A stretch of DNA of 20,000 bases from an uncultured virus (IMG/VR IMGVR_UViG_3300003962_000117) (IMGVR_UViG_3300003962_000117), one strand, 5' to 3'. Positions 896-20,000 are shown, counted from the first letter of the stretch. Notes: generated from the sequence alone by a model not told the origin. Numbers and translations: made by a program.

Positions 896-897
896 TT

Positions 898-1572: not shown

Positions 1573-1619
1573 ATATCTGCTTTCAAAAAAATGCGTCTCG
1601 AAATATTATTTTAAAAAGG

Positions 1620-2150
1620 CTATATCTTCTCGATAAAATAACTCGACCAGTCATCGGTTGAGATGAACATCTTAAATCCGTTGTTCAAGCAAAATTCATC
1701 AACGGCTTTTTTAACCTCGTGATATGGATAGTCGTGACCGCACAAATATCCACCCTTTTTAACTTTATGCCACCACATACCCAAGTCCTTTGTAACCGCA
1801 TCATAGCTATGGTTGGCGTCAATATAAACAAAGTCAAGGCTGTTATCATCAAACATACTGACAGCCCTGTGCCCAGTAGCCCTTATCATGGTCGCTCTCT
1901 CTCCGAAAGAGTATATCCTATCAAATGCGCTTGACAGGTTTTCCCTCTGAGCGTCTGCGCCCACATTAGCTACATCATTATAAGATTCTCTTGGCAGCTC
2001 CCTCCAAATATCAATCAGGACTAACTCTCTTCCATTCCAATTTTTCAGTATGTGCTCAGAATACTTCGCCTTCTGAACTCCGAGCTCAACCCCGATTCCT
2101 ACCAGACCTTTTTCATTAAGAAATGCTGGAAAATCTTCCCTTGTTTTCAT
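1620..2150 (-). CDS. Class I SAM-dependent methyltransferase (Methyltransf_24-like)
   Basis: GVELGV, LIDIW, LDFVYIDANHSY, KGGYLCGHDY motifs. Confidence 0.9.
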   Translation of the reverse strand: MKTREDFPAFLNEKGLVGIGVELGVQKAKYSEHILKNWNGRELVLIDIWRELPRESYNDVANVGADAQRENLSSAFDRIYSFGERATMIRATGHRAVSMFDDNSLDFVYIDANHSYDAVTKDLGMWWHKVKKGGYLCGHDYPYHEVKKAVDEFCLNNGFKMFISTDDWSSYFIEKI

Positions 2151-2157
2151 TTTTGTT

Positions 2158-3009
2158 TTATTTAGTTGGTTTATAATTTATTGCTTGTTCTGCTATTTTC
2201 AGATACCTGTGAATCATTAAATGATTGTTCATTATCCAATTTTGATTATCCTTTATCATCGCCTCATAACCCGCCTTTGGTATAGACAATATTTTTTCTA
2301 TCTGCGAGAATATATCTTCATAGTTGTGATAAAAATACGCCCTGTCAGCGAGTGAAGGTATCTTTGCGCACTCCTCGTTATAATCAGTAAGCAGCATTCC
2401 GCCAAATCCTATATTCTCAAAGACTCTATAATTGCATTCGTTGGTACTGGACTTGTTAAACGCCACATAGGAGTCCTGAACTACATTAGCATACTCTCTC
2501 CATGAAGCGGTTTTTATTGTATAAGATATTTTTCTCGCATCTAAATCAGACTTGAATTTATCAAAAAACAATTTCCTATTGACATATTCATCAATATGGC
2601 CGACAAACGAAAGCTGCTTCCCCCTGCCCTCTTTTATTCTTCTCATCAAATCTAATGTAAAAAAGAATCCGAGAGGAAGATGGGTTGACGGCCTATTCAG
2701 TTTCCTCCTCATTCCATCAACAGACATAAAAATATAATCATACGAGTTTGCATAATTCGGATAGGCGCTAAAAATTCCGCCATTATCTATGAACCACATT
2801 GCTTTAGGCACTTTTACGCTGGCCATGAGATGCGAATAGATGGACTTACCTTCATTAAATTCCTGCTCTATAATTAAATCTGCATTTTTTGCTCGCTCGT
2901 AAAAAACCTCTTTAGGCATTTTATAATTATAAAAACTCGCATCAAAATATTCACCGAGCCCCATAAAATCCGAGTCCCATAGCGTGAGAAATAATACCTT
3001 TGGCTTCAT
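2158..3009 (-). CDS. GT-B glycosyltransferase, CgeB/Glyco_trans_1_2-like
   Basis: WFID, LPLG, LSFVG, and NYRVFENIGFGGMLLTD matching the 'N-x-R-x-F-E...G...LTD' motif; C-terminal H-x-x-x-HR. Confidence 0.7.
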   Translation of the reverse strand: MKPKVLFLTLWDSDFMGLGEYFDASFYNYKMPKEVFYERAKNADLIIEQEFNEGKSIYSHLMASVKVPKAMWFIDNGGIFSAYPNYANSYDYIFMSVDGMRRKLNRPSTHLPLGFFFTLDLMRRIKEGRGKQLSFVGHIDEYVNRKLFFDKFKSDLDARKISYTIKTASWREYANVVQDSYVAFNKSSTNECNYRVFENIGFGGMLLTDYNEECAKIPSLADRAYFYHNYEDIFSQIEKILSIPKAGYEAMIKDNQNWIMNNHLMIHRYLKIAEQAINYKPTK

Positions 3010-3659
3010 ATTGAATACCCTAATTGCTTTTCCTGATTTATATCAAGGCGCTTTCTTATCGCAGACATATATCGAGATGGGATTTTGTATTTCGGCTTAC
3101 GAATATATGTTCCGCCATACGTCTCGTCACTACTCGTTATAATTATGTTGCTGCTTTTCCTTTTAATGGAAAAATTCTTTCCAATATCTACAATGATTTC
3201 CCTTCCGTTTCTTTTTATATCCTCGTACCTTATCAGCACATAATTACTTACCATCTCAGGCATCCTGTCGAGCAAGTATTCATTTTTCAACTTCCTTAAC
3301 TCAAAAATATCCTTATACTTTTTTTTATCTTTCCAATTCCTATCCTCTATAATTTCATTTCCAGTCGCCTCATCAATAGAAACCCATTCGTCAAGTAAAA
3401 ATGAACCCCATCTCTTATTTCGACCAATAGGAAGATGATGAGGGTGTTTTTTTAAAGAAGCCATCCATTGAACAGGGTTCCTGACAATTCCTATAAATAA
3501 AACATCATCAGTTCCAGATAGGTCGCTGTGTCCAAAAAAATGCTTCCATCCCCATAACTGCAAATGCTCTATGTCAAAATTATCTAACATAATCTTTTGA
3601 ATAAAGTTAGTGCCGGAACAACGCTCTCCGTATATGGTAAAGATTTTTATATCGCCCAT
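3006..3659 (-). CDS. Sulfotransferase-like (P-loop fold) protein
   Basis: IYGERCSGTNF (5'-PSB-like), GWKH, IVRNPVQWMAS (3'-PB-like R...S), LIRYED. Confidence 0.7.
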   Translation of the reverse strand: MGDIKIFTIYGERCSGTNFIQKIMLDNFDIEHLQLWGWKHFFGHSDLSGTDDVLFIGIVRNPVQWMASLKKHPHHLPIGRNKRWGSFLLDEWVSIDEATGNEIIEDRNWKDKKKYKDIFELRKLKNEYLLDRMPEMVSNYVLIRYEDIKRNGREIIVDIGKNFSIKRKSSNIIITSSDETYGGTYIRKPKYKIPSRYMSAIRKRLDINQEKQLGYSI

Positions 3660-3677
3660 TACTATTAAATTCTCAAA

Positions 3678-4421
3678 CTACAAGTTCATTTTTTTCACTC
3701 CTAAAAAAAGACCTCTGTATTTATTATATTCAAATGGCTTGCCTTCGCTAAATACGGTCTGCTGATACACGATGTCAAACCCTACCTCTTTGATTGCCTG
3801 AATTAGTTGCGTTTTTTTGAGCCAAAAAGATTTGCTATTACTGTACGAAGCCCATTTATTCATCTCGACTTTATCGCGAGTGGTATTGGAGTCGTATTCA
3901 AAAAACCACCTACCCAACTTCCCTTCATTCTCGCATATTGGAGATAAGCTAAACTGGCAATCGCGCATATCATCCTCTGCATAATGAGTGTCTATGATTA
4001 TAGTGTCGGTTATAGCTCCCATCTGCTTTAAAAATGAAACCGGATTGTCCAGATGGTACAAAATCCCGCAACAAAGAATCGCACCATACTTTTTTGACGA
4101 GCCGATATTTTTTACATCATCTTTCACAAAGATGAGATTTGATAGTTGTTTAAACTTGCTTTTTACAAATAGGCATTTCTGATAATTGGACTCGCGAGCC
4201 TCTACCCCAATTACGTCATATCCCATCTGCGCAAGCGCCACCGAATATCCGCCCTCAAGACATCCTAAATCCAAAATAGACGACTTAGCTCTAACGAATC
4301 TGCCTATACTGTCATAAACGGCTCGACTAAGAACGGAGTCTTTGTGCTCCTCTTTGCCAGCATCCATCGTAAATGTTCCGTCTGGAAATTTTATATTATG
4401 GGCTGTAAATTGCTCTGTCAT
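3678..4421 (-). CDS. Class I SAM-dependent methyltransferase
   Basis: ILDLGCLEGGYS, VIGVEAR, ILCCGILYHLDNP. Confidence 0.9.
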   Translation of the reverse strand: MTEQFTAHNIKFPDGTFTMDAGKEEHKDSVLSRAVYDSIGRFVRAKSSILDLGCLEGGYSVALAQMGYDVIGVEARESNYQKCLFVKSKFKQLSNLIFVKDDVKNIGSSKKYGAILCCGILYHLDNPVSFLKQMGAITDTIIIDTHYAEDDMRDCQFSLSPICENEGKLGRWFFEYDSNTTRDKVEMNKWASYSNSKSFWLKKTQLIQAIKEVGFDIVYQQTVFSEGKPFEYNKYRGLFLGVKKMNL

Positions 4422-6550
4422 TATAGATTTATGTTGATATATTTTTTCTCAATCCATCCAACAGTCACTTCATAATTTTCAACCGACAATCCCCATCTTT
4501 CACAAAATGCCTTACGCCTCTCTTTGTACATATCGCTCAATCCGCGCTTTTTAAGCTCCCTTCGTCCAAAATTTTTATCGTGATAATAATTGGGCGCATT
4601 TACCGAATATGACTTCCAGCCCTTAGCTCTCATTGCGTAGAAAAAATAATCATCTTCATATCCCCATCCAAAGCTATTAAAGGGTGGGTGCGATGGGAAT
4701 CTTACCTCCCTAAGCACATCTGTTCTAAATAATCCATACTGCGTCCAAGCCATTGGATACCAGCAGTTGATTTTCGTAATGACTCCCATTTTTTCATCCG
4801 CATCGCTCCGGCTTAATGTGCCGCTCCAGTGTCCATTATTTTTTTGACTCCTTTCATAATCGTAATACCCAATGATTGCTGCGTCCGGAAACATATCCAT
4901 TACCAGAGAATACTTTCTGATAGTGTCTGGCACATAAAGAATATCTCCATCAATCAAGAATGTTCGCTCGTGCGAAGCCAAGCATACGCCAAGATTTCGA
5001 GCAATAGACGAGCCGTAATTGTCGTTAAGTCGAACGTATTTTATCTGAGAACCAAACTCCTTAAATAGCTTGCCCGAATTATCATCGGAGCCATTATCCA
5101 CCACTATGACCTCTATGCCTTCGGCCAGCAACCTTCGGGCTGACTCTACGGATACATGACTCTCGTTCCAGTTAGTAATAATGGCGCTGGCCTTAACATC
5201 TTGATATTTTTTGTCATACACTTTTTTCATTCCGTTCTTAAATTCAAATTGCTTTTCTTCATCAAGAAATTTATGACTCACTCCGCCAAGATGATTAACG
5301 ATTGAGTCTTTTACAAGTGCGTGCCTGAATCCGTGATTTTGTAATTGTTTTGCGTAATCATTATCCTGAAACCAGAACTTAAACTTCTCATCGAACTCTC
5401 CTATCTTTTTCAAAACCTCTTTCTTCATTACAACGCAGTACCCGAATACCTGCTCGCCAACATTATAGCCGAGCCATACCGGAGACGGGACGGATATTTC
5501 GGGTCTCGCCTCGAACCACTCTTTCCAGAAAGGACAAGCCGAATCGAGATTGTGCTCGCCCATTGCATTTACCATTTCAGATAACCACCCTCCTTCAAAA
5601 ATCACATCGTTGTTTGTAGCGACAATGTACTTGCTTTTGCATTTTGAAAATCCTATGTTCAAAAACTTGTTGAAATTAAATTCCTGCTTCGGAATAATCA
5701 CATTAGCGTCATATCCTTTTGGGAAATCCTTGTCGAATTTTTTATTGGTTTCTATCAAATACACATTGAACTTGACTTCTTTTTGAGAGCCTCTCAGAGA
5801 TGAAATTGCGTTCTTGGTCATTTCGTATATCTGCTTATCCTTCGTATAGGACAGCATTACCACATCAACCTCAATGCCTATTGGGTGCTGCTTTACGAGC
5901 TTAATGGAATATAGCTTCCACCCTTCGCATCTTTGAGCCTGTTCGTAGAAACGCCCATCAGTCATATCGCTGGAGGCGTCTTTAACCCAGCCCTCTTCGT
6001 GACTCAGAACAACAATGGGTGTTTTATTTTTCTGCGCGGCCAATGAAAAATACAAATCAGTGTCTTTAGATGACGGAAAGTTTTGGATTGACACTTTAAT
6101 GGTGTCCGTGTGATACCCAGAGCATCCGGATGCAGCGACATGAACGAAAGTATCTGAGTCTGATTTTTGATTGCACTTTACGATTTGACCACCCAGCGCC
6201 AGCCCGTGAAAAGATACTATCGCTTTTCTATGATACCTTTCGATGCCATCAATCATTTTGCCTACATAGCCTCTCGGATAAACGACCCCTTCGTTAACAT
6301 GGAGCGCATACCCACTCAATTTATCGCTGAAATAGAATTTGCCAGCACTTCCGTATCCACTGTGGATGATGTACTCTATTTTATTTGGAGCGATTTTCTG
6401 GATTTCATTGGCCAACTCCTGACTATAATTAATCAAGTATAGATAAAATTTATCGGCCTGATGCAGCAGGGAATTTATGGTGTCGCGCAAATAACTCTCA
6501 TTAACGCTTGAGATGCATACTGATACTTTATCGTTTTTTTTATTCTTCAT
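4421..6550 (-). CDS. Three-module GT-A (GT2-like) glycosyltransferase; first module degenerate
   Basis: Module 1 (aa ~1-215) is paralogous to the N-half of 6540..8099 but lacks the DDD motif. Module 2 has FNFNKFLNIG, TNNDVIF, FWFQDND. Module 3 has VVDNGSDD, ARNLG, IDGD, GWGYEDD. Confidence 0.85.
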   Translation of the reverse strand: MKNKKNDKVSVCISSVNESYLRDTINSLLHQADKFYLYLINYSQELANEIQKIAPNKIEYIIHSGYGSAGKFYFSDKLSGYALHVNEGVVYPRGYVGKMIDGIERYHRKAIVSFHGLALGGQIVKCNQKSDSDTFVHVAASGCSGYHTDTIKVSIQNFPSSKDTDLYFSLAAQKNKTPIVVLSHEEGWVKDASSDMTDGRFYEQAQRCEGWKLYSIKLVKQHPIGIEVDVVMLSYTKDKQIYEMTKNAISSLRGSQKEVKFNVYLIETNKKFDKDFPKGYDANVIIPKQEFNFNKFLNIGFSKCKSKYIVATNNDVIFEGGWLSEMVNAMGEHNLDSACPFWKEWFEARPEISVPSPVWLGYNVGEQVFGYCVVMKKEVLKKIGEFDEKFKFWFQDNDYAKQLQNHGFRHALVKDSIVNHLGGVSHKFLDEEKQFEFKNGMKKVYDKKYQDVKASAIITNWNESHVSVESARRLLAEGIEVIVVDNGSDDNSGKLFKEFGSQIKYVRLNDNYGSSIARNLGVCLASHERTFLIDGDILYVPDTIRKYSLVMDMFPDAAIIGYYDYERSQKNNGHWSGTLSRSDADEKMGVITKINCWYPMAWTQYGLFRTDVLREVRFPSHPPFNSFGWGYEDDYFFYAMRAKGWKSYSVNAPNYYHDKNFGRRELKKRGLSDMYKERRKAFCERWGLSVENYEVTVGWIEKKYININL

Positions 6551-8099
6551 TTTCGATGTAGGCTTTATCCTTGACGGAATTATATAGCTCCTTTGAATTT
6601 ACTTTTTCTCCCCACTTCGCATTAAACGCCTCCCGCCTTTCTTCAAACATGGCGCTCATGTTCATTATCTGCATCTGTCTTAAAGAAAAATGGGCATCAT
6701 GATAGTAGTATGGCGCATCAACACTCAGGGAAATCCATCCGTCCTTAGAAAATTCTCTGTACAGCCAGTCGTCCTCGAATCCATATCCGCACATATCGAA
6801 TGGTGGGATTGAAATGAACCGATACTTTTTCAGAACCTCTGTCCTGAAAAGTCCGTACTGAGTCCAAGCTATCGGATACCATGTGCCTATCTTTTTGATT
6901 TTACCCATGACTTTATCAGCAAGCTCTTTATGCTGAGTTCCATGAGAGAGATTTCCATCTTTCCTGAGCTCCCAGTCGAAGTATCCCAAGCAAGCGCAAT
7001 TATCAAATTTATTTATCACACGCTCGTACTCAGAAATCGTATTTGGCACATACAAGATGTCTCCATCAATGAGGAAGGTGAATTTATTGCCAGCCGGAAT
7101 TAAATCAATGCCGATATTCCTTGCGATGCTTGAGCCGTAGTTCTTATTTAGCAGAACGAGTTTTATTTTGCTGCCAAATCTTTCCTTGAATTTATCTCCA
7201 GAGCCGTCAATGGAGCCATTGTCAACAACTATCACGTCAATATTTTCGCTTAAAAGCCTTTCAATCGTGCCGAGCGACACATGGCTTTCGTTCCAGTTCA
7301 GGACAATGGCCGAACACTTATTAGCCCCGTGATTTTTAACTGGACTACTGACCGCTCTTTCTGGCTTCTCCTTGAAGCTCACTCCATAAAGTTTCCATTC
7401 GCCTATCTCGGAAACCCTTTTCTTGTGCTCTAAGAAGCCGCTTGCCGCCCGCGTAATGGCTATCGAGCTTTCGGAATACATCTCAGTAATCCAATTCGAC
7501 TTATGAGCAAGAACACATATCGGAACTTTTTTCTTCTGGGCTAAAATGGCGAAGTGAGTGTCTGCCATATTGGGGGACGGGAAATCATTCATGGTCGGAC
7601 TGATTGTATCACTATGCCATCCCATACAGCCAGTCCCTCCGGCATGAGCGAATAGGTCGGTATGCAGCTCATCTTTAAATGTGACGAACCAGACATGGCT
7701 TGTTGCGTAATCGGCAATAGGAAATTTAAAGAGCCTGCCGTGAAAGGTGACGACCGCCAGCCGATTGTACTTTTCGATGCCCGCCACAACCTTCTCGACA
7801 TAATCTGGCGGGTAAATCAGGTCGTCATCGAGCGTCAACATGAACCCTTTTAGCTTGTCTGCCCAGTGGAATTTATGGGCGTCTCCGAGCTTATTATCTC
7901 CTATTACAAAGCATATCTTGTCCGGAGATATGTCTCTCAGTCTTTTAGCGGATTTTAAGTCGTAATCGTTTAGGTATAAATAGACCCCATCAACCTGATT
8001 GATGATTGATTCTATGGTCTTGGTCAGCAGATGGCCTCTCTCTGGAATACTTGAGATGCACGCATAAACTCTATCCTTTCCTGTACGCCCTCTATTCAT
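6540..8099 (-). CDS. Two-module GT-A (GT2-like) glycosyltransferase
   Basis: Module 1: SSIPER, GDAHKF, TLDDDLIYPPDYV, GGTG. Module 2: VVDNGSIDGS, ARNIG, IDGD, GYGFEDD. Confidence 0.85.
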   Translation of the reverse strand: MNRGRTGKDRVYACISSIPERGHLLTKTIESIINQVDGVYLYLNDYDLKSAKRLRDISPDKICFVIGDNKLGDAHKFHWADKLKGFMLTLDDDLIYPPDYVEKVVAGIEKYNRLAVVTFHGRLFKFPIADYATSHVWFVTFKDELHTDLFAHAGGTGCMGWHSDTISPTMNDFPSPNMADTHFAILAQKKKVPICVLAHKSNWITEMYSESSIAITRAASGFLEHKKRVSEIGEWKLYGVSFKEKPERAVSSPVKNHGANKCSAIVLNWNESHVSLGTIERLLSENIDVIVVDNGSIDGSGDKFKERFGSKIKLVLLNKNYGSSIARNIGIDLIPAGNKFTFLIDGDILYVPNTISEYERVINKFDNCACLGYFDWELRKDGNLSHGTQHKELADKVMGKIKKIGTWYPIAWTQYGLFRTEVLKKYRFISIPPFDMCGYGFEDDWLYREFSKDGWISLSVDAPYYYHDAHFSLRQMQIMNMSAMFEERREAFNAKWGEKVNSKELYNSVKDKAYIENEE

Positions 8100-8199: not shown

Positions 8200-8610
8200 T
8201 TAAGGGATAGAAGGAGGCGTCAAGCAACTCAAAGCTATCCAGCTATGACGGCCAGCAACGTGAACAAAAATCGCTCTTCCAACTCCATTGAAGGAGGCTG
8301 AATTTGCTCCGCAAATCTTATCAGAATCATCTTCTGATTGGAAAGCGTTAATGATGATTGGGTTGATTGGCGCATTGCTGCGGATGGTCATGAAGAAACC
8401 AAATCCAACTCCGAAGTTTCCTTGACGGAAGAGCGAAGTAATGGACATGAGGTTAACGATGAGCCCTCCTGCAACGAGGTCGCAATCGAATACTTTTGGG
8501 AGAACAGGAACGGCTCCTTGACCAGAGCTTGTAGGCTCTACCGAGAAGTTGTATGTGTTTCCTCCTGTCAATACTTGGTATTGAGGAGTTGTCATTAGTT
8601 CTATTGTCAT
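8200..8610 (-). CDS. Small beta-rich putative virion structural/decoration protein (paralog 2)
   Basis: Aligns end to end with 8699..9103 (PQYQ, NTYN, P-LPK-FD-D, NLMSITSLF, FGVGFG, DSD-ICG, HVAGRH-W); resembles the N-terminal domain of the collagen-like protein. Confidence 0.6.
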   Translation of the reverse strand: MTIELMTTPQYQVLTGGNTYNFSVEPTSSGQGAVPVLPKVFDCDLVAGGLIVNLMSITSLFRQGNFGVGFGFFMTIRSNAPINPIIINAFQSEDDSDKICGANSASFNGVGRAIFVHVAGRHSWIALSCLTPPSIP

Positions 8611-8636
8611 TTGCTTTTGATTTATTTTTTATTGAT

Positions 8637-8671
8637 AAGGCAAGCGATGGCTTTTAATCATCGCTTGCCTT
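8637..8671. promoter_or_regulatory. Intergenic 13-bp stem-loop between paralogous genes
   Basis: aaggcaagcgatg (8637-8649) / catcgcttgcctt (8659-8671); no U tract on the coding (minus) strand, so it may be a processing/stability hairpin or leaky terminator. Confidence 0.6.
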
Positions 8672-8698
8672 TGTTGTCAATTCGTCAATAGCTCGGTA

Positions 8699-9103
8699 TT
8701 AAGGAGCTGGAGTGAAGCACACCGCATGGAACCAGTTGTGGCGTCCTGCTACATGAATCCATCCGGCCATTCCTGCTGGGAATGCAACAACAAGTTGCGG
8801 CTGACCGCAGATAGTATCAGAATCCCCTTCTGATGTAAATGCGTTCCAAACGATGTTGGCCAAGCCAGCAGTTTTGGTGTAGAAGATTCCGAATCCTACT
8901 CCGAAACCACCTTGAGCAAACAAAGAAGTGATGGACATAAGATTTATTGTCACCACACCTGCGGTAGTGTCAATGTCGAAACACTTCGGCAGTTGAGGAA
9001 CTGTTCCTCTTCCTGAACTTGGAATCTCTGAATCGAGATTGTAAGTGTTGTTGCCAGTAAGTTTCTGGTATTGTGGGGCTGTGTCTAAAGTGATAATAGC
9101 CAT
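8699..9103 (-). CDS. Small beta-rich putative virion structural/decoration protein (paralog 1)
   Basis: Contains DIDTTAGVVTINL...G...N-I...DTICG...W, a pattern like the 'DTxxGxxTxxLP...DxIxG...W' domain of phage baseplate/fibre proteins; very A-rich leader. Confidence 0.6.
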   Translation of the reverse strand: MAIITLDTAPQYQKLTGNNTYNLDSEIPSSGRGTVPQLPKCFDIDTTAGVVTINLMSITSLFAQGGFGVGFGIFYTKTAGLANIVWNAFTSEGDSDTICGQPQLVVAFPAGMAGWIHVAGRHNWFHAVCFTPAP

Positions 9104-9189
9104 TTTTTAATTTTTTTTTAGATTAGTGTTCTTCGATAGTTTTGATAAGCAAAAGTGGTGAATAATAAGGCACGATTTTTCTAAAAATT

Positions 9190-9319
9190 CCGACATTACA
9201 CTATGTCGGCACTATTTAATTCATTGATTATCAGCGTATTGCATGGATGATTTCGTGTCGGCTTTTTTGTCATACTTGAAATTCAGTCAAAAAATGGTGG
9301 CGACAAACCTCAATGTCGG
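9190..9319. promoter_or_regulatory. Paired palindromic sites CGACA-N8-TGTCG flanking back-to-back IHF-consensus matches
   Basis: ccgacat-tacact-atgtcgg (9190-9209); gcgacaa-acctca-atgtcgg (9300-9319); half site tgtcgg (9256-9261); TAAttcaTTGATT (9217-9229) and TATCAGcgtaTTG (9229-9241) each fit WATCARNNNNTTR. Confidence 0.55.
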
Positions 9320-9400
9320 ATTTGAGATTCGGGTCATGAAATTATTTGGCATAATTTTACTGCGTTAGTTTCCACGTTAAAGGTTAATTTCTATTGTTGC

Positions 9401-9440
9401 AAAAGACGCCTTGACTTCGGTCAGGGCGTTCTTTTTTTTA
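9401..9440. terminator. Intrinsic terminator, probably bidirectional
   Basis: acgccttgac-ttcg-gtcagggcgt hairpin with C(UUCG)G loop and T8 tail on +; on - it directly follows the stop of 9441..10868 and is followed by TTTT. Confidence 0.75.
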
Positions 9441-10868
9441 TCAGAAGATGAGGTATCCATCCTCTGCGTAGAACTCAAGGAAAGATTTTTTTCTCTGCTC
9501 GAAATAGGTGTTTCCCTTTTTATCCTTCACGACTATCTTATTCAGATTGCCTTTCCGGAAAATACTTTTTGCGTCTGCTATCGCTTCTTCTCTATCGAAT
9601 CTTGACCTAAACTCTTTGCCATCGTTCTCTGCAATCATGTATTCGATAAGCTCTCCCCCTTTCTCTTTTTGCTCAGGAATGACTATCACCTCTCTTTCTG
9701 AGTGTCCGGATTTTTCTATGAAGTTAATGAAGTCGTGTGATGCGTACTCTGGCGCATATTTGTTTTTACGAACCCATTTAAAAACAAATTCCACAGAAAC
9801 AACATTTTCAGGAAGAGGCTTTTCAAACACCTTCCCATCTTCTCCGGCAAATCCTTTCGCCACATCCTTGTCATAAGTCCAGCTCCATGCAGCTTCATCG
9901 AATTGCGCACCGGACACATGAGACCCTCTGTATATTTTATCAATGCCTTTGTTTTTCAGATACTCGTAGCTGCTTTTAATAATCCAATCTGGAGCATCGG
10001 TCGGAAGCATCTCATCATCCTCCTCGACCGGATTATTATAGTAAACGTATTCGAGAAGGTAGTTGATGTAGGTCTTGTCATCCTTTGATATGGTCTTGGC
10101 GGTCGGAATTTTTCCACCAGCCTCCATTTCGACGCTGCCGCCTTTTTCCAAATAACCCATATCCTTGAGGTCAATGATTTTTCCGCGCTCCACCCATTCA
10201 TCCCAGAGTTCCGGTACGAGGTAGTGCTTCTTGAGGGTTGGCCTCCCGTGCCCAACCTTTTGCGCCACGATTTTTAGTATAGCATTCAACTGCTTCTTGC
10301 GTTTTTTGTCAGTCTCCTCCGGTTCAATCTTTTTTAACTTTTCGACCGTGTATTGGTTTGCAAGAAATCCGCGCAGGTCTTTTGCGGAAATATTGTGTGG
10401 GGATAAATATCTATTAACTCTGTCTGCCTTAATACGAAATCCATCGGAAGTCTCAAACACATATTTACTGGGAGAATTTTTCAATGCGGTTTTTAACGCC
10501 TTTGCAATCCGCTCATCTGTAAAACATTTTTCATGACGAACTCCGGACTTGCCCGTATAGTCAAGCGATACCGTATTTCCGCTTATAGATACATTCGAGC
10601 GCTGGAATCCGGTAACACCCAAATGACCATCCCCTGCCGATGAATCGTTTCCGATGCGCTCTGCCGTAAGCAACATTGTTGCAACCACAAGCGCGGTGAG
10701 TGAATCCTTTTCATTATCGCTCTTTAAATCTTTTGAAACATTCAGGCGGAGCTTACGAATACCGGAAGATAGCTCCTCTATGCGAGCCTTCTTCTTCTTC
10801 CAACGGGCTTCTATGACCTCTGGACTTTCAGGCGGACGTGGGACAAATATTTTTTTCTGTTCTACCAT
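9441..10868 (-). CDS. Multidomain protein: DNA topoisomerase IB catalytic core + putative R-S-E ADP-ribosyltransferase domain + small C-terminal domain
   Basis: TopIB catalytic residues R71 (ERIGN), K107 (YTGKSG), K163/R166 (AKDLR), H207 (KVGH), Y216 (KKHY). After the EKGG/EAGG linker: IYRG (R314), SWT (S329) DKDVAKGFA, SEREVIV (E391/E393). Confidence 0.85.
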   Translation of the reverse strand: MVEQKKIFVPRPPESPEVIEARWKKKKARIEELSSGIRKLRLNVSKDLKSDNEKDSLTALVVATMLLTAERIGNDSSAGDGHLGVTGFQRSNVSISGNTVSLDYTGKSGVRHEKCFTDERIAKALKTALKNSPSKYVFETSDGFRIKADRVNRYLSPHNISAKDLRGFLANQYTVEKLKKIEPEETDKKRKKQLNAILKIVAQKVGHGRPTLKKHYLVPELWDEWVERGKIIDLKDMGYLEKGGSVEMEAGGKIPTAKTISKDDKTYINYLLEYVYYNNPVEEDDEMLPTDAPDWIIKSSYEYLKNKGIDKIYRGSHVSGAQFDEAAWSWTYDKDVAKGFAGEDGKVFEKPLPENVVSVEFVFKWVRKNKYAPEYASHDFINFIEKSGHSEREVIVIPEQKEKGGELIEYMIAENDGKEFRSRFDREEAIADAKSIFRKGNLNKIVVKDKKGNTYFEQRKKSFLEFYAEDGYLIF

Positions 10869-10892
10869 TATTCGGTATCTTCAAATTATTCC

Positions 10893-12590
10893 TTAAACAC
10901 GAGGCGTCCAAAATTCTTTACTTAGTTGCTCGGACAAAGATTTTAATTCCTCGACAATGGATGCTGGGACTGGCTTATAGAGCCAATCGGTTCCGTACCT
11001 ATATCCCTTATCCTCGTAAAGACCTATGGACTTCAAGTATTCATCCCTCTTGTCGAAGTCGAATTTATTTTCTGGCGTGTACCAATTTTTAAGAGCCTCA
11101 TTTTGCCTTACAGTTCCGGCATAAAAATCATTCATGTTATACTCCCTGTAAATGCTGGCAAGCCTTAGTAGAGTTTTATTTTTCGGAAAGCTCTCTTCTA
11201 TTTTTGCGATTGTCGCAGAGCTGCTGTAATTCCTGAAATATCCATTCCACTTTCTGCCGGATATGTGGATATACGGAACATCGTGCAGAGTCTCAAGCGT
11301 ATCCCAGTCTCGGATGGTCGGGATATTCTTAATCGTTACTTCAATTTCGTACTTAATTAGGTTGATTACTTTCTTGTACAATATCTCTCTGTCGTCTGCT
11401 GGCATTATAGTGGACTCCTCTCGCCAAATATAATTTGGCAGTTTCTTGAACTTGACAAAATATCCTATCTGGCCATGAATTTTATTTTGCTCGCCCACCT
11501 CCTTCATCCACTCGGAAAATTCTTGTTCCCTTCCATTGTCGTCTCGATATTTTATAGTGCCGATGTCATCGGTGGTTACTGTTATGGTATTTCCGTTTTC
11601 ATCGAAATAGTTATATGGCTCTCTCAATTTGACCTTATCGCGCATCTTGTATTTTGGGGTCGCGCCAGCCTCTCCGCCATTTCTCATTTCTTGTTTTGAA
11701 ACATAAATTCTTCCTTTATTGGCTATCCGCTTCGACTCTTCTTCAAGAACTTTTTCTGCGGATTCTCTGTCTGATAGCCACTCGCTTTTTAGTTTGCCAT
11801 TTGAATCAAAGCATTCATCTGTAACGCCATCAAAATCTCCGCGCCAAAAGTTCCATATATGCAATATTTTTTCTTGAGAAAGATAAACTGAATAATCTTC
11901 TTCAATAATTTTACTGTCTTTTTCAAGAATCCCCTTCTTCCTTTCGAGATACCGAGCTATCTCCCTGTTTGTATTAACCTTATCTCCCTTCGATAAGATT
12001 AATTGTATTTCACCGCAATCCTTTTCAAGTTCCTCTTGGGTTGAATTGGGGTGATATATCATCAGGTGTCTCCTGATTTCATATTCTGCATTTGCATTTG
12101 AACTACGGGCTGCAATATTCATCGTTTGCGCTCTTGCCTCTTCCAGTGTGACAGGCTTTTGCCTCAGCAATAAATACGCTCCAGCGCGATTCATCTCATC
12201 AAAAGATACATTGGGTGCTCGTTTTTGAATGTCTTTAAATGTTTCGTAGGATATGTCTCCTAAATCATTCAAATGTTTTTTACTGCCTTTGATGCTCCCT
12301 CCTTCTGACATTTTCTTCTCTACATATTTCAAGAGTAAATCATAGTAATCGTCATCTTCCTTGAAATGAGCTTTAGCAATCGTCTCATAAAATTCCTGCT
12401 CAGTAATTGGCATCTCTACGCCCTGAGCTGCCAGCCTCTTTTTCAATTTGTCGTATAAATCCTTGTGCTCCTTTTCTACTTTTACACCAACGGCTAATTT
12501 GTCTGCCGGAACATCTTTAAAATATCCTCCCCAGACGAGCGCCCCGTCATTACCATAGCTTTTCAAGAATGATAGAAATCCTTTCCCCAT
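10893..12590 (-). CDS. Modular (polyvalent-type) phage protein: DUF5661-like + unknown + WNFxRGDFD domain + SH3/KOW-like + C-terminal phage domain
   Basis: GVKVEKEH...IAKAHFKEDDDYY (DUF5661-like pattern); KYKMRDKVKL...GTIK...YFVKF (SH3-like); C-terminal MNDFYAG...GYRYGTDWL..P; MSEGG and MRNGG linkers. Confidence 0.65.
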   Translation of the reverse strand: MGKGFLSFLKSYGNDGALVWGGYFKDVPADKLAVGVKVEKEHKDLYDKLKKRLAAQGVEMPITEQEFYETIAKAHFKEDDDYYDLLLKYVEKKMSEGGSIKGSKKHLNDLGDISYETFKDIQKRAPNVSFDEMNRAGAYLLLRQKPVTLEEARAQTMNIAARSSNANAEYEIRRHLMIYHPNSTQEELEKDCGEIQLILSKGDKVNTNREIARYLERKKGILEKDSKIIEEDYSVYLSQEKILHIWNFWRGDFDGVTDECFDSNGKLKSEWLSDRESAEKVLEEESKRIANKGRIYVSKQEMRNGGEAGATPKYKMRDKVKLREPYNYFDENGNTITVTTDDIGTIKYRDDNGREQEFSEWMKEVGEQNKIHGQIGYFVKFKKLPNYIWREESTIMPADDREILYKKVINLIKYEIEVTIKNIPTIRDWDTLETLHDVPYIHISGRKWNGYFRNYSSSATIAKIEESFPKNKTLLRLASIYREYNMNDFYAGTVRQNEALKNWYTPENKFDFDKRDEYLKSIGLYEDKGYRYGTDWLYKPVPASIVEELKSLSEQLSKEFWTPRV

Positions 12591-14365
12591 TACTGTAAAA
12601 ATAATTCTTTTTTCTCAGACATTGGCTTTGGCAATTTGAAGTCGCCCATTTTTTTCTTAAATCGTTTTACAAACGGCTCGCGATGCTTTTCCCATGCGCT
12701 TATATTCTGAATGAGTCCGGTCGCCATGAATGCCTGAGCTTCATCAATGAGAACATTTTCTCCGTACCCTCTTTCAGTCGAAAGTATATTGAGCATTTTT
12801 TCTTTGTCCGGCAATTTACTTACGAGAGCGGTCATGTCATTTCTATAATCCTCGTCCGACCAGAAAAACGCATGAGCGAGTTCGTGGTCAAGCGTATCAT
12901 GGTCTCCAGACCGGATTCCAATCAGATAAAAATCGGTTGACTTTTTCATTATCTCGAAAACTCGGTCGAGGAAAAAATTATCGTACTTGTTCCTTTCATC
13001 GTTGACGGTGTAGCAATTCATTATGGCGCTGCTGGGGACATTAAACCCATAAAATTCTTTCGGGTATGTGAATTTCCCGTTTGCGCTGGGGAAATTCTCG
13101 GAGAACCATTTTTTGAACTCGTCTATCTTAAATTCTTTGCCCTTAAATTCGTCCCATTCGTAAAAAGTTTGGCAGCGCAAGAATGACAGCGCTAAATCTT
13201 CGTTCTGCTCCATTTCCAATAAGAATATGTTCGGATAGAGTTGATATAATGAATACTCGAAATCAATTTCACCACCATACTCCATTTTTCTGAGAGTTTT
13301 TATGGAAACAAGCGGACTTTCGTTTATATAGTAGTCATCTAAGAATTGCATCTGGTCATCATCATTCTTAAACTCTCCGCCACTATAAATATAAACAGGT
13401 ATATTTTTTATCCCCATTTTCTTCAAAATCATAAATCGGTGATTGCCGTCCCAAATAAAATACTTTCCATCCTCCTTATCGTTTACAAGTATTGGAAGGA
13501 CGCCATTCTTTTTTATCTCCTGAGCTAACTCCTCATACTGTTCGTCATCTATGCTCGTTGTTGTGAATGAGCCATCAATATATTTAGAATCCAAAATAGC
13601 AAACCTTATGCTGCCCTCCTTGATTTTTTTTAAAAATTTATTTAGCCGAACTACATTTTCATTGGTTCTCTTTAATTCTTTTTCAGATAATTCCCCGCCC
13701 CGACCATATCCTCTTTTGAAAAAATAATGAATGTCGCTGTCCACGTTATATATAAAAAGTATTGCCGTGTCTTTTATTGACATATCACGACCAGCGCTAT
13801 CCTGCGCTATGTAGTGAAAAGTATGTTCGCCTTTTATTGCTTTTTTAGGAACATCGTCTTTCGATACATATTTGTAAAATTCCTCCTCTGTCGTTTCTTT
13901 TGACTTACCCCAATCATCTTCATCTGGGTCGCCTACATATTGCGACATAGTAGTAGCATCTGGAAAGTACCTACAAACCTCTCCCTTGCCGTCAGCAACA
14001 TCTACGCAATTTCCTATGTACCCGCCTTTAGCGTATTGTCCTCCGGCTTCCTTCTTTACAACGAGCACTCTACCTTTATAGAAAGACCATTTATTCTTTT
14101 CCTCAACAACTTTTTCGGCAGACTGCTTATCAGAGAGCCAATTTTTTCTCATAACTAAATTTTCGCTCTTATCAAAATCCGCATTCAATACTCGGTCAAA
14201 ATCGCCTCTATTGAAATTCCAGTAATACAAAAGCCGTCCCTGATGATACATGACGGCATAGGATTTATCAGCAGCTCCTCCGTTGGAAAAAGTATTTCCA
14301 GACCGAAAGTATCCGCCCCATATCAAAGCGCCCTCATTGGAGTAATATGATGCAAAATTATCCAT
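12590..14365 (-). CDS. Modular (polyvalent-type) phage protein: WNFxRGDFD domain + unknown (GNCV...DIHYFF) + ParB/Srx domain + HExxH zincin-like domain
   Basis: LAQEIKKNGVLPILV...YFIWDGNHRF (ParB/Srx); DHELAHA at aa 493-499 with downstream DEAQAF (zincin-like); FSNGG, EAGG, YAKGG, YGRGG, MEYGG linkers. Confidence 0.7.
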   Translation of the reverse strand: MDNFASYYSNEGALIWGGYFRSGNTFSNGGAADKSYAVMYHQGRLLYYWNFNRGDFDRVLNADFDKSENLVMRKNWLSDKQSAEKVVEEKNKWSFYKGRVLVVKKEAGGQYAKGGYIGNCVDVADGKGEVCRYFPDATTMSQYVGDPDEDDWGKSKETTEEEFYKYVSKDDVPKKAIKGEHTFHYIAQDSAGRDMSIKDTAILFIYNVDSDIHYFFKRGYGRGGELSEKELKRTNENVVRLNKFLKKIKEGSIRFAILDSKYIDGSFTTTSIDDEQYEELAQEIKKNGVLPILVNDKEDGKYFIWDGNHRFMILKKMGIKNIPVYIYSGGEFKNDDDQMQFLDDYYINESPLVSIKTLRKMEYGGEIDFEYSLYQLYPNIFLLEMEQNEDLALSFLRCQTFYEWDEFKGKEFKIDEFKKWFSENFPSANGKFTYPKEFYGFNVPSSAIMNCYTVNDERNKYDNFFLDRVFEIMKKSTDFYLIGIRSGDHDTLDHELAHAFFWSDEDYRNDMTALVSKLPDKEKMLNILSTERGYGENVLIDEAQAFMATGLIQNISAWEKHREPFVKRFKKKMGDFKLPKPMSEKKELFLQ

Positions 14366-14366
14366 G

Positions 14367-14877
14367 CTAAAAATGTTCTTCTAAATCAAAGTTTGATGGA
14401 AGCTCGACTCCGGCCTCATTACCGTTCTTTGCGCGACTCTTCTTCCATTCAGAAATATATTCTTTCCTATGCTCTGATATTTTTGACTCGCTGAATCCGA
14501 GCTTATCAATCAAATGCTTATTGTCCTTCAAGAATCTAATCGGGCTCCCAATGTAAGTGCTGAACGGAATAACTCTTTNNTACAAAACAATTATTCCCGA
14601 CAATAGTATCCCTCTCTGACCCGCAGCCGATAACTACAAATTCGGCAAACCTGTTGCCGTCTCCTATTATCGCTTTCTTAAAGCCCCTTCCTTCTTTTGT
14701 TTTTTCAAGCGCCTGTTTGTGCTCCGGCTCTGAACCGATAGAACAATGGCTAACAAAGGTGTTTCCGTTTCCGATTATTGCATTTGGATACACGATGCAG
14801 TATGCGCCAATGATATTGTTATCGCCCAATACCGCCCCATCATACACTATCGCTGTTTCATGAATTATATTTGCCAT
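14367..14877 (-). CDS. LpxA-like left-handed beta-helix (hexapeptide repeat) acyltransferase, interrupted by an NN assembly gap
   Basis: IHETAIV, LGDNNIIGAYCIV, SIGSEPEHK, IGDGNRFAEFVVIGCGS, TIVGNNCFV up to NN at 14579-14580; the other frame continues VIPFSTYIGSPIRFLKDN...LGF, the expected C-terminal part. The two track ORFs appear to be halves of one gene. Confidence 0.75.
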
Positions 14878-14889
14878 GACCTATGTTTT

Positions 14890-15891
14890 TTATTTTGAAT
14901 ACGCTCTCGAATCCACAAACAGCATTCGAGCCGGATGCGGATTTTTATATTTCAATCGCAGCTCTCGAACTTTCTTGGCTGAATTTGGACGACCATTTTT
15001 AGCATATACTTGTTCGAGAAAATATAGGTGCTCCGCCCGAAGCTCATCGAGCTCTCCGCAGCGCCAGTATTCGTCAATCACTTCCATGAGCGGATAGCCC
15101 AGAGTCCATTTTAGTCCGGCAATCATTAATCTGGAATAGTATCGCTCCTCGTAGAGCCCTCCCTCCATAGCCGTTCTTTTTTCATACCACTCGATAGCCT
15201 CCTTCGATTCGCCAGCGTCCTTATAGCTCTGCGCCAGATAAAAAACATCTCTTGGGTCATTATGCTCTTCGACATCTTTCTTTATCGCAGCAATATATCT
15301 TTGGTACTTTTCTTTCCTCCCTTGCTTCCATGAGTTTCCGTCAGACAAGCATACCACTTTGAAGTCGCTAATAAATCCAGTTTTGGACGTAGATGGTTCA
15401 TAGGAATACAATCCTTCATGAACCCTATGCTTCCAAAATGGATTCTTTGAGAGCTTGAAAAAACTACTCCTATCGTACACCAAATCCCCGTTCTTTACGC
15501 TGATGTTGGCAAAATCGTATTTTGATAAATTTCTTTTCAATACATTTTTATCAAATCCTTTACTTAGTACAATCGTCTCATCACATCCAATCAGAAATCC
15601 GTAATCCATTATTCCTTTAGCTTTCTCCAGCGCATAATTTCTCCATGCACAAAAATTAAGAAGCCCGTCATCATTTTCTGGTTTTGGAAAATCAAATACT
15701 CCGCCTTTAATTCCTTTCGAGTCAAAAAAGTTCCTCACGATTTCTCTTGACGAATCGGTCGAACCAGTATCTACGATGCAATATGAATCTATAATTGGCA
15801 GGACAGACTCCAAGAATCTGGGCAGTATTTCAGCCTCATTTTTCATTATTATGTTCACCCCTATCGTGGGCAGATTATTTGCCGGAGTCAT
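14890..15891 (-). CDS. GT2 glycosyltransferase with C-terminal TPR-like helices (protein O-glycosyltransferase type)
   Basis: IIMKNEAEILPRFLESV, VDTGSTD, WRNYAL, GCDE (DxDE position), RVHE, then PRDVFYLAQSYKDAG...AIEWYEKR. Confidence 0.85.
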   Translation of the reverse strand: MTPANNLPTIGVNIIMKNEAEILPRFLESVLPIIDSYCIVDTGSTDSSREIVRNFFDSKGIKGGVFDFPKPENDDGLLNFCAWRNYALEKAKGIMDYGFLIGCDETIVLSKGFDKNVLKRNLSKYDFANISVKNGDLVYDRSSFFKLSKNPFWKHRVHEGLYSYEPSTSKTGFISDFKVVCLSDGNSWKQGRKEKYQRYIAAIKKDVEEHNDPRDVFYLAQSYKDAGESKEAIEWYEKRTAMEGGLYEERYYSRLMIAGLKWTLGYPLMEVIDEYWRCGELDELRAEHLYFLEQVYAKNGRPNSAKKVRELRLKYKNPHPARMLFVDSRAYSK

Positions 15892-16468
15892 CGAATAGCA
15901 AAGATAGCTGATTATTCAAGCATCTAATGTGGTCTTGTGGGGTTATGAAGCATTGTTTATCAACAATGCCCTTATAGCTATCTATTCCGAGACATTCAGC
16001 TCCGTACCTCCTTCCCGTAAATTCAGAGCAGGTGTCTCTTTTTGTGCTGCCGAGATTTTTTGTATTAAATCCGAATCTTCGATAAATACCGATTCTGGCA
16101 AGCATGAAAAAGTCGTACTTGATTCCATCTTCGGCTTTATCAATAGCTTTATTCACCGCCTCGTCAATTCGTTGACCCGAAAAACCAACTGGCCGGACAA
16201 TACAAAAATCCTCGTAGTCTTTTATCAGATGGCTTAAAAAGTGCGGCTGAACTCCATCTGCCACCGAATCAATGGTCAGCAACCTGTCTCCCTTTTTAAA
16301 AATAAGGGCGCAATGATTATAGTACGCTTTTTTCCAGTTGCCATTTTCATCCTTAATAGCATCTCCCCAGTGAATGAGTTTGGCTAAGAGTCCGGAGCCT
16401 CTAAAAAGAGTGATGTCTCCATTCTGGATTTCCGACCTTACTGAAAGATACTTTTCGTATGTACTCAT
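15875..16468 (-). CDS. Permuted papain-like NlpC/P60 (YiiX/YebB-like) amidase/peptidase
   Basis: GDITLF, YNHCAL (His), KYDF, TCSEF (Cys), ITPQD, in the permuted His-before-Cys order. Confidence 0.85.
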   Translation of the reverse strand: MSTYEKYLSVRSEIQNGDITLFRGSGLLAKLIHWGDAIKDENGNWKKAYYNHCALIFKKGDRLLTIDSVADGVQPHFLSHLIKDYEDFCIVRPVGFSGQRIDEAVNKAIDKAEDGIKYDFFMLARIGIYRRFGFNTKNLGSTKRDTCSEFTGRRYGAECLGIDSYKGIVDKQCFITPQDHIRCLNNQLSLLFDDSGK

Positions 16469-17529: not shown

Positions 17530-18351
17530 TTATTGTTTCACTTTTGTTAATAAAATATAAAATTCTACACTACCTGCGGTAGCCTGATTCAAATTAGCGC
17601 CTGCACTTACAGCCTCCGCCCTAACACTTGTTACATTGCCCCAATCCTCCATGAAAAAATCCTGACTGGTTTGAAAATTAGTGTCTCCGACATTAGTGGA
17701 TACAAGGAATGGGCTGGCATATTTAATTAGATTTCCTGCTATTCCAACCGAAATAGTGTATGTAGAAATGCCTGTCCCTTGAAACTTAACATCGTGTTTT
17801 ATTACAACCCCACGAACCATATATCCTTCCGGCAATAAGAATATTTCAATATCCTTACTCAATGACGCAACACTAAAATCGGAATATATCTTTATCACTT
17901 TTATAGCTATCTCTGTCGGCTCATTGAATTTAGAAATTTTAGATACAAGCCTCTTAGTATAGTAGTCAGCTATCTCTTGACTTCCGCATTTAGAAATATA
18001 GAATGCGTTTCCTTGAGCAGATATTATTCTAAGACCGCACCACCTAACAGCAACATCTTGCTGCGCTGCACTTAAACTATTCCAACTACTATAATCTACT
18101 CCGGCAATGGCTTCAATTCGAGTGCATATCTGAATCTGCAACGAAGCAAAATCCGGAAGGTCATCAGTCGAACCAACAAGAGTTATTGCATATTTATCCC
18201 AATTTTCTGGGGCATCAAAAGCCTCATAGTTTGCGGGTAGAGAATTAGCTATAACAAAAGCGGGATATGGCAGATTTTCTACCTGAGAAGTATTTGGATT
18301 TACATAAATATGTGTTACTGGGTCGTATCCAGTAAGTATGTATAGAGTCAT
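17530..18351 (-). CDS. Hypothetical two-domain protein with beta-rich C-terminal domain, likely virion/fibre associated
   Basis: Directly follows the collagen-like gene; C-terminal LPEG...ISVGI...TAGSVEFYI is beta-sandwich-like. Confidence 0.55.
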   Translation of the reverse strand: MTLYILTGYDPVTHIYVNPNTSQVENLPYPAFVIANSLPANYEAFDAPENWDKYAITLVGSTDDLPDFASLQIQICTRIEAIAGVDYSSWNSLSAAQQDVAVRWCGLRIISAQGNAFYISKCGSQEIADYYTKRLVSKISKFNEPTEIAIKVIKIYSDFSVASLSKDIEIFLLPEGYMVRGVVIKHDVKFQGTGISTYTISVGIAGNLIKYASPFLVSTNVGDTNFQTSQDFFMEDWGNVTSVRAEAVSAGANLNQATAGSVEFYILLTKVKQ

Positions 18352-18353
18352 TA

Positions 18354-20000
<1,647 letters not shown>

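Follow-up and report, generated by a model that had tools for sequence, protein, structure and literature searches.

Polyproteins of adenoviruses and of African swine fever virus (ASFV) are processed at Gly-Gly-X sites, by adenain in the former and by pS273R, which acts on pp220 and pp62, in the latter. The adenain consensus is (M/I/L)-X-G-G-X, with cleavage after the Gly-Gly pair (GG) and a hydrophobic residue at P4. In phages, T4 gp21 and phiKZ gp175 cut after Glu ([S/A/G/L/I]-x-E), gp21 removing the capsid-targeting sequence from the T4 internal proteins and gp175 cutting the inner-body proteins of phiKZ. Polyvalent proteins are regarded as the earliest weapons that a phage delivers. Processing has been proposed for these proteins, and P1 DdrB is given as a ParB domain with a C-terminal zincin-like metallopeptidase (MPTase) that is processed before packaging (Iyer, Burroughs, Anand, de Souza, Aravind 2017, PMC5512222). 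Here we describe three adjacent genes, for proteins of 591, 565 and 475 amino acids (aa), in 20,000 nucleotides of DNA from an uncultured virus (IMG/VR IMGVR_UViG_3300003962_000117); the window refers to the whole of that stretch. Each of the three genes codes for a polyvalent phage protein in which unrelated enzyme modules are strung together. Comparison with relatives shows that a conserved motif centred on GG marks the ends of cassettes that have been gained, lost, swapped, fused and split at exactly these joints.

The coordinates and open reading frames (ORFs) that a sequence-only reading had given for the three proteins are correct. The proteins are polyvalent in that one combines a type IB topoisomerase (TopIB) with an unrelated module and another combines ParB with an HExxH module and two others, while the phage origin is evident from matches to collagen-like tail-fibre PHROGs inside the window and from relatives on IMG/VR phage contigs. 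All 11 pentapeptides ending in GG that had been listed lie at the residues given for them, and two further sites had been overlooked (LIWGG at residues 14–18 of the 591-aa protein and LVWGG at residues 18–22 of the 565-aa protein), making 13 in total. This is a modest excess over the 7.4 ± 2.4 found in shuffled sequences; the other 19 ORFs of the window contain 20 GG, against about 37 expected from composition, or 15 against about 23 if the collagen-like ORF is left aside. Taken alone the window data show a modest excess of GG, which is convincing only together with the relatives. Ten of the 13 sites are at module borders supported by homology (GG at residues 29, 108, 114, 223 and 364 of the 591-aa protein, 97 and 305 of the 565-aa protein and 243, 251 and 404 of the 475-aa protein). 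The proposal that GG recurs at domain boundaries holds for these ten; of the others, IYSGG is inside a unit and the two WGG are within a leader. The doublet joints that had been pointed out are present, at residues 105–115 of the 591-aa protein and 238–252 of the 475-aa protein.

Relatives on IMG/VR and in metagenomes were obtained by profile-based scans, where single-sequence searches gave no close relatives, either in the JGI metagenomes or, for the 591- and 475-aa proteins, in IMG/VR. The metagenome set, an independent replicate, covers 80 loci with 854 ORFs, of which 82 are GG-rich; most of these are large genes that stand in arrays behind TopIB. The same logo is seen in two data sets, with a consensus of [YFML]-x-x-G-G-x-[IVL] and an information content of 0.83 bit at position −3 in both. 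Among 649 unique metagenome sites the favoured residues are Y/F/M/L at −3, A/E/K at −2 and K/E at −1, with Glu at +1 in 21% and I/V/L at +2 in 47%. GG is more frequent than in shuffles in two groups, with counts of 552 against 299 ± 16 for the TopIB set and of 59 against 31 ± 5 for the polyvalent relatives, though the sequences counted are interrelated and the z-values overstate their independence. No excess is found in standalone HExxH proteins (48 against 61).

The site that follows TopIB in the 475-aa protein is strongly conserved. The enzyme core itself is recognised by Topoisom_I (PF01028) with 80 bits against a curated cut-off of 23.7, and Tyr216, presumably the catalytic tyrosine, is invariant across 40 aligned relatives. 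In 40 TopIB relatives of 44–77% identity Gly243 is invariant and Gly244 is at least 90% conserved, and this alignment includes standalone enzymes that stop 2–20 residues past the site. GG is present at this position in 76 of the 80 metagenome relatives; in the remaining four the ORF stops before the site (L086), stops no more than 4 residues from it (L154) or is a standalone protein ending at the site (the other two). In the AlphaFold model the predicted local distance difference test (pLDDT) has block means of 72–98 over residues 1–230 with nothing below 50 before residue 238, from which point it falls below 50 directly adjoining the confident TopIB. As the invariant pair is in a stretch predicted to be unstructured, it is likely to be a functional linear motif rather than a packing feature.

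In a large-database search with the 591-aa protein we found relatives that share single modules with it in different orders. Most of the eight relatives from the first search carry PF18760 (ART-PolyVal), which identifies them as polyvalent proteins, and ART-PolyVal is found in 28 of the 80 metagenome loci. The joints in the polyvalent relatives read NPDIRY-x-x-GG, EYAKGG, KYELGG, YKNGG and FEYGG. Standalone counterparts, with ends that match the joints, exist for every well-covered module of the 591-aa protein. In P0014, a relative of 1568 aa, the end of TopIB is combined with the HExxH module, with a copy of the first module of the 591-aa protein (module 1), with ParB modules and with further units; about a dozen [MY]-x-K-G-G sites are present, one of them 4 residues from the end of the protein. 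Homology breakpoints, taken as ends of BLAST alignments at which both proteins continue for at least 25 aa, are within 5 aa of a GG in 33% of cases, against 9% for random positions (671 breakpoints in 116 proteins). When 142 relatives are cut at GG, the 432 segments of at least 45 aa fall into 113 clusters with at least 60% mutual coverage, which implies that the GG-bounded pieces are whole homologous units with many different neighbours. Counting kinds of neighbour, TopIB has 31 downstream, the HExxH module has eight upstream, and a module with the signature YIGSCVD, present in five GG-bounded copies, has five different neighbours on each side.

Two close relatives show the loss or replacement of cassettes exactly between GG joints, as the sequence-only reading would have it. 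P0158, which is 54% identical, tracks the 475-aa protein through ...GYLEKGGSVEMEAGGK, the last 45 residues being identical; unrelated sequence then takes the place of the ART-like module, and near-identity returns from KE[KS]GG-EL to the end. In P0012, which is 91% identical over the HExxH module, that module follows module 1 immediately after VLVVKKESGG, without the two cassettes that intervene in the window; the truncated record shows ten residues only of module 1. With other orders, fused and single genes, and breaks at GG, the picture of shuffled, GG-bounded beads on a string is borne out. Fission is illustrated by L004, where three consecutive single-module genes each end in [YM]xxGG-x9-IGGL. 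Standalone TopIB proteins end 2–5 aa past the motif (for example ...GYRKGGRV), and P0008 starts MNLSEHRYKKGG and then runs into its first module. Fusion of TopIB to further modules is usual in this clade and gives proteins as long as 2514 aa.

The Gly codons differ among joints (GGC GGA, GGA GGA, GGT GGT and others). Since these codons vary, selection appears to act on the protein, and it is at this level that the alignments indicate the joint motif is maintained. A DNA-level scar, in which the joint DNA is the substrate of recombination and the peptide is inert, would account for gain, loss and swapping of cassettes exactly at the joints and for doublets that resemble two joined ends. However, no nucleotide repeat was found across the 13 window joints, which differ in their Gly and flanking codons and have nothing in common beyond GGN GGN, and the residues favoured at −3 and +2 stay the same although their codons vary. 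We consider such a scar very improbable.

The function that we favour for the motif, at a probability of roughly 0.4, is cleavage by a protease at GG, inferred from sequence rather than from the proteins themselves. The motif would be the recognition site of a site-specific protease cutting at or just after GG. A single translation product could then carry one N- or C-terminal address peptide and, while entering the host or once inside it, be split into individual effectors, packaging in the virion being assumed by analogy with other polyvalent proteins. Cleavage is favoured because fixed short motifs between unrelated domains are typical of viral polyproteins and because the motif is retained at the ends of proteins, where it has nothing to tether. 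A further reason is that PMC5512222 proposes processing for polyvalent proteins and notes that P1 DdrB is processed before packaging. Of 63 proteins, seven have a GG no more than 6 aa from the C-terminus (2.6 ± 1.6 expected) and 16 have one no more than 12 aa from the N-terminus (5.9 ± 2.2 expected).

Several observations weigh against this function. The enrichment of GG at termini is modest and the N-terminal cases are mostly from one module family. Some GG are inside modules and not all boundaries carry one; the start of the repeated module at about residue 230 of the 565-aa protein has none. Of 839 GG-to-GG spacings, 134 are of 10 aa or fewer and 224 of 11–40 aa, so that cutting everywhere would give many tiny peptides, and a repeated spacer unit would fit these distances better. 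No match to capsid, portal or prohead protease families was found in the window, in two related contigs or in 146 representative neighbours of the 80 loci, and the genes neighbouring the arrays are mostly for replication, recombination, methyltransferases and glycosyltransferases rather than head genes. The HExxH module is embedded in two of the 80 related loci (one of the 32 loci of at least 12 kb) and is abundant as a standalone protein in phages that do not have the motif. For these reasons it is unlikely to be the general processing enzyme, and we rejected it as the rule.

It had been suggested that a Ulp1/C48, adenain-like or prohead protease might be found on the contig. None turned up among the 22 ORFs of the window, in the rest of the two related contigs or among the 146 neighbours (searched with PHROGs only, E ≤ 1e-5), a search that reached about 10 kb to each side of the loci and 20 kb of the window's 78-kb contig; two relatives are about 26–28% complete. 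A 197-aa ORF of the window (15875-16468, (-)) resembles a permuted papain-type cysteine peptidase, a fold that we take to be YiiX/C92-like: phmmer aligns it with PDB 3kw0 ('Cysteine peptidase') at E 1.2e-3, including a His and C-S-E-F, and it has a weak PHROGs match to 'enoyl-CoA hydratase-like'. As the cognate protease it was set aside as a lead only, with six database relatives including one Bacteroidota metagenome-assembled genome, and a homologue is absent from the two related phage contigs.

The protease result and the spacings bear on a different explanation, that the motif is an uncleaved hinge or spacer in which a Gly-Gly turn is flanked by hydrophobic residues of the neighbouring modules, so that the proteins work as intact multi-enzyme strings and any module could fold beside any other. 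The short distances and tandem doublets do resemble repeated spacer units, there is no cognate protease among the ORFs scanned, and PMC5512222 has the N4 virion RNA polymerase and ArdC/TraC1 delivered unprocessed. Ordinary linkers, however, vary in length and sequence, whereas Gly243 is invariant across relatives of 44–77% identity with no packing in the AlphaFold model, and the motif is kept at protein ends with nothing to tether. Free fusion and fission also mean that the modules need not be tethered. We regard a hinge as somewhat less probable than cleavage.

If cleavage does occur, it might be directed at Glu rather than at GG, by a prohead protease of the T4 gp21 or phiKZ gp175 type recognising G-G-E. 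Five of the 13 window sites are GGE and Glu is the commonest residue directly after GG, yet it is found there in only 138 of the 649 unique sites while the GG itself is fixed, and no S77-type protease was seen in the ORFs scanned. Of all the explanations considered we would give this one hardly any weight.

The ends of the proteins also raise the possibility of a docking or loading peptide, with joints and tails binding the capsid interior, portal or scaffold to load the cargo. Encapsulin cargo-loading peptides and the T4 capsid-targeting sequence are precedents for this. Conserved C-terminal tails of several classes follow the final GG (..FEYxIGGL, ..YYAxxGGLIF, ..FYAEDGYLIF), the 591- and 565-aa proteins have an N-terminal leader in common, and multiple copies would give avidity. 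Most of 67 complete C-termini of GG-rich ORFs are, on the other hand, without such tails and the gene context is not that of a head module, which makes loading by the motif unlikely. The shared leader (Y.N.GAL.WGGYF followed by FSNGG in the 591-aa protein) may nevertheless be an address peptide: BLASTP aligns residues 3–40 of the 591-aa protein with residues 7–46 of the 565-aa protein at E 4e-05, and the leader motif was not found in any other of the 854 ORFs scanned. The tail of the 475-aa protein, ..SFLEFYAEDGYLIF, is coded at 9444-9500 (-) and belongs to the class ..[FY]Y[AS]E[DEN]G[WY]LI[FL], which ends nine other listed relatives and one metagenome ORF. Other tail classes in the relatives are ..GELSFLNW, ..FL.P.Y[RK]... 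and ..YxIGGL. Many TopIB relatives (P0183–P0252 and others) start with a small module [IMF][FV].G..H..GG[IV]P, often after a leader of 3–12 aa ending in K-x-K-G-G, while other orthologues start at the module itself.

The GG junction motif is, as the phages compared here show, confined to one uncultivated clade. Among IMG/VR TopIB loci the GG joint is present in two of 80 (L003 and L004). Of 13 TopIB polyvalent proteins from distant huge phages, ten are at the shuffle level of GG and three (L051, L079 and L071) are 1.8 to 3.4 standard deviations above it, and the motif context was found in none of the 13. The metagenomes from which the clade derives are from freshwater, marine, groundwater and sediment sources. 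Extending the cleavage reading to the whole clade, we tentatively suggest, while thinking it rather unlikely, that these widespread tailed phages make true polyproteins of up to about 2,500 aa with up to about 40 sites that would be cut by an unrecognised Gly-Gly-specific protease. Such polyproteins would yield dozens of anti-host effectors together with small peptides, and the site would double as a universal 'plug' for cassettes. Further giant genes follow the TopIB polyvalent gene in L003 (14217-19379 (+) and 19385-20783 (+)); with L083 5975-7699 (-) they match PHROGs of unknown function (phrog_14770, 18947, 616 and 30335), whose profiles are 1500–3400 aa long. In L090, a 125.8-kb metagenome contig, a reverse transcriptase (18131-19105 (-); phrog_1423, E 7e-112) and a transposase (8460-9812 (-)) are located near the TopIB gene.

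The features of the three proteins are collected in Table 1.

Table 1. Modules and joints of the three polyvalent proteins, in order along each protein; positions are counted from the first letter of the window.
Protein	Feature	Residues	Position	Strand	Basis
591-aa	Gene		12590-14365	(-)	ORF translation agrees
591-aa	N-terminal leader	1-30	14276..14365	(-)	Leader motif then FSNGG; common to 565-aa protein
591-aa	Unnamed module 1	31-104	14054..14275	(-)	Repeated in 565-aa protein
591-aa	Double joint KEAGG-Q-YAKGG	105-115	14021..14053	(-)	Sequence; compare relative P0012
591-aa	Unnamed 'YIGSCVD' module	116-219	13709..14020	(-)	Standalone homologues
591-aa	Joint YGRGG	220-224	13694..13708	(-)	pLDDT dip and breakpoint
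591-aa	ParB/Srx module, with internal IYSGG	225-360	13286..13693	(-)	Pfam
591-aa	Joint MEYGG	361-365	13271..13285	(-)	Homologue starts; model start
591-aa	HExxH (zincin-like) module	366-591	12593..13270	(-)	Homologues, motifs
565-aa	Gene		10893-12590	(-)	ORF translation agrees
565-aa	N-terminal leader ending LVWGG	1-22	12525..12590	(-)	BLASTP with 591-aa leader
565-aa	DUF5661-like module	23-93	12312..12524	(-)	Pfam, below cut-off
565-aa	Joint MSEGG	94-98	12297..12311	(-)	Homology breakpoint at residue 96
565-aa	Unnamed region, distal end without GG	99-229	11904..12296	(-)	Sequence
565-aa	Module 1, second copy	230-301	11688..11903	(-)	BLASTP
565-aa	Joint MRNGG	302-306	11673..11687	(-)	Homology breakpoint at residue 307
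565-aa	Unnamed C-terminal region without GG	307-565	10896..11672	(-)	Sequence
475-aa	Gene		9441-10868	(-)	ORF translation agrees
475-aa	Type IB topoisomerase core	1-237	10158..10868	(-)	Pfam Topoisom_I
475-aa	Double joint GYLEKGG-SVEMEAGG	238-252	10113..10157	(-)	Conservation, pLDDT
475-aa	ART-like module	253-400	9669..10112	(-)	Sub-threshold structural neighbours
475-aa	Joint KEKGG	401-405	9654..9668	(-)	P0158 homology; model start at about 406
475-aa	Small C-terminal domain, tail ...SFLEFYAEDGYLIF	406-475	9444..9653	(-)	pLDDT, relatives

Of the domain names that the sequence-only reading had proposed, TopIB and ParB_N are supported by Pfam, while DUF5661, ART and zincin are below threshold or weak. 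No PolyVal or LPD Pfam family was found in the three window proteins at E ≤ 0.1. In the 591-aa protein, module 1 is 45% identical to residues 230–307 of the 565-aa protein and also matches residues 995–1092 of P0014, GG being found before and after each of the two copies. The 'YIGSCVD' module has standalone homologues of 116–121 aa (P0020, P0021, P0084 and P0102) that match residues 113–218, and its pLDDT block means are 76–94 over residues 131–210 and 82 over 211–220. It is a confidently modelled unit of about 105 aa with two conserved cysteines and no family name. The pLDDT is below 50 at residues 220–226, flanked by confident segments, and a homology breakpoint is located at residue 226; a second dip spans residues 337–367, below 50 over 337–361, with the model confident again from 368. 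ParB_N (PF02195) matches residues 271–326 with 30.5 bits against a curated cut-off of 26.3. A standalone 148-aa ParB homologue (P0129) matches residues 234–357 and spans IYSGG (326–330) without having GG there.

The search with the whole 591-aa protein gave 1927 hits at E ≤ 1e-3 and, among the 150 matches listed, most are standalone proteins of 210–240 aa that cover the HExxH module. More than 100 standalone homologues begin, at their own residues 2–10, opposite query residues 368–373, just after MEYGG. HELAH and DExQA[FY] are conserved in the family and the pLDDT block means are 85–98 over residues 371–580. The zincin label is based on the HExxH motif and on weak fold matches (Z 4.2–5.3): VIA-align with the over-long, 591-residue model gave the Pro-Pro endopeptidases PPEP-2 (Z 5.3, root-mean-square deviation 5.3, 124 residues aligned) and PPEP-3 (Z 4.8), and lethal factor (Z 4.2). 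Foldseek with the whole 591-aa model against the PDB gave nothing at E ≤ 0.001 and the family profile gave a chance-level hit only against PDB sequences. No Pfam family matched the module, and a Pfam scan of 39 members found no common family; this is a very large standalone phage family of about 220 aa without a Pfam model. The gene that it matches in the jumbo phages XacN1 and Xoo-sp13 is labelled 'ABC transporter ATP-binding protein', an annotation that looks wrong.

In the 565-aa protein, DUF5661 (PF18905) scores 20.4 bits, under its cut-off of 27. One TopIB relative (P0267) carries PF18905 in its precomputed annotation, and six GG-bounded segments homologous to the DUF5661-like module are found elsewhere, with varied neighbours. 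For residues 99–229 no family was found and there was no match in the 80 related loci. Residues 307–565 gave no family above threshold, with one weak phage hit to residues 457–549. In the 475-aa protein the ART-like module has no Pfam hit. Its structural neighbours include ART and ADPrib_exo_Tox clusters at a TM of about 0.54, which is under the tool's bar, and a possible triad (YRG, S-x-T and E-R-E) can be read by eye where AlphaFold confidence is low; five GG-bounded homologous segments are known. The small C-terminal domain has pLDDT block means of 83–92 over residues 411–460 and 77 over 461–470.

The window as a whole is a one-strand array of 22 ORFs with about 40% G+C. No similarity to GenBank phages was found at the DNA level. 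At the protein level the HExxH module is matched in three GenBank phage records, TopIB in one and the 565-aa protein weakly in one; the LR756502.1 copy of the HExxH module is a gene of its own with no GG linker, and the TopIB of LR745208.1, which likewise lacks the linker, follows an unnamed N-terminal region to which it is fused. Dense sugar- and methyl-modification genes flank the three proteins (266-8099 (-) and 14536-15891 (-)). The set comprises several GT2 and other glycosyltransferases (a 709-aa one has two GT2 stretches), as well as a hexapeptide acyltransferase and four ORFs resembling methyltransferases, and glycosyltransferases recur beside the related arrays in relatives. The ORF at 18354-19649 (-) encodes a collagen-repeat, tail-fibre-like protein of 431 aa with 18% Gly, which matches Pfam Collagen at 78 bits and the tail-fibre family phrog_6320 at E 3e-51.

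The seven-residue joint can serve as an unsupervised splitter of hundreds of giant uncharacterised phage proteins into modules, many of them without a family, and it is a concrete candidate processing site. If it is cut, it would lead to a new site-specific protease and would offer a natural standard by which effector cassettes could be cloned as modules. If the polyprotein reading is true, the clade would be a bacterial-virus counterpart of ASFV and adenovirus Gly-Gly maturation with a new protease specificity. If it is uncut, this would be an unusual case of a conserved linear motif acting as a universal inter-domain connector.

In comparison with adenovirus and ASFV, the window proteins are alike in having Gly-Gly at putative product borders with a hydrophobic residue upstream, though here cleavage is our reading and the host is bacterial. 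The adenovirus register does not fit because the hydrophobic residue of the motif is at P5 (−3 from the first Gly) and not at P4, which is A/E/K, and no clan CE protease was found among the ORFs scanned. T4 and phiKZ are alike in the idea of an address peptide and of proteolytic maturation of injected proteins, but their cleavage after Glu does not match the window's clade, in which only 21% of the sites have Glu behind the GG. With the polyvalent proteins of PMC5512222 the window proteins share unrelated enzymatic domains in one polypeptide, extreme mosaicism and the ParB, ART and zincin-type HExxH modules, the ART and zincin labels being weak here; relatives of the 591-aa protein carry PF18760, while Pfam found no PolyVal or LPD family in the window proteins. 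P1 DdrB has the same order of ParB and then C-terminal HExxH as the 591-aa protein, a likeness of domain order, and in the latter two further modules and GG joints precede an HExxH module that has no Pfam match. The words 'linker' and 'glycine' do not occur in the text of PMC5512222 and 'topoisomerase' occurs in its reference list only, so that a fixed junction motif with a TopIB anchor is not described there. Full-text literature searches, which did not extend to subscription journals and supplements, likewise gave no account of polyvalent phage proteins joined by a Gly-Gly motif. Type IB topoisomerases (PF01028) have the core and the presumed catalytic tyrosine in common with the 475-aa protein, and differ by the GG joint that is present in 76 of 80 relatives. 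While polyvalent proteins as a kind are already known, the conserved junction motif and the use of TopIB as the anchor of the array would seem to be new.

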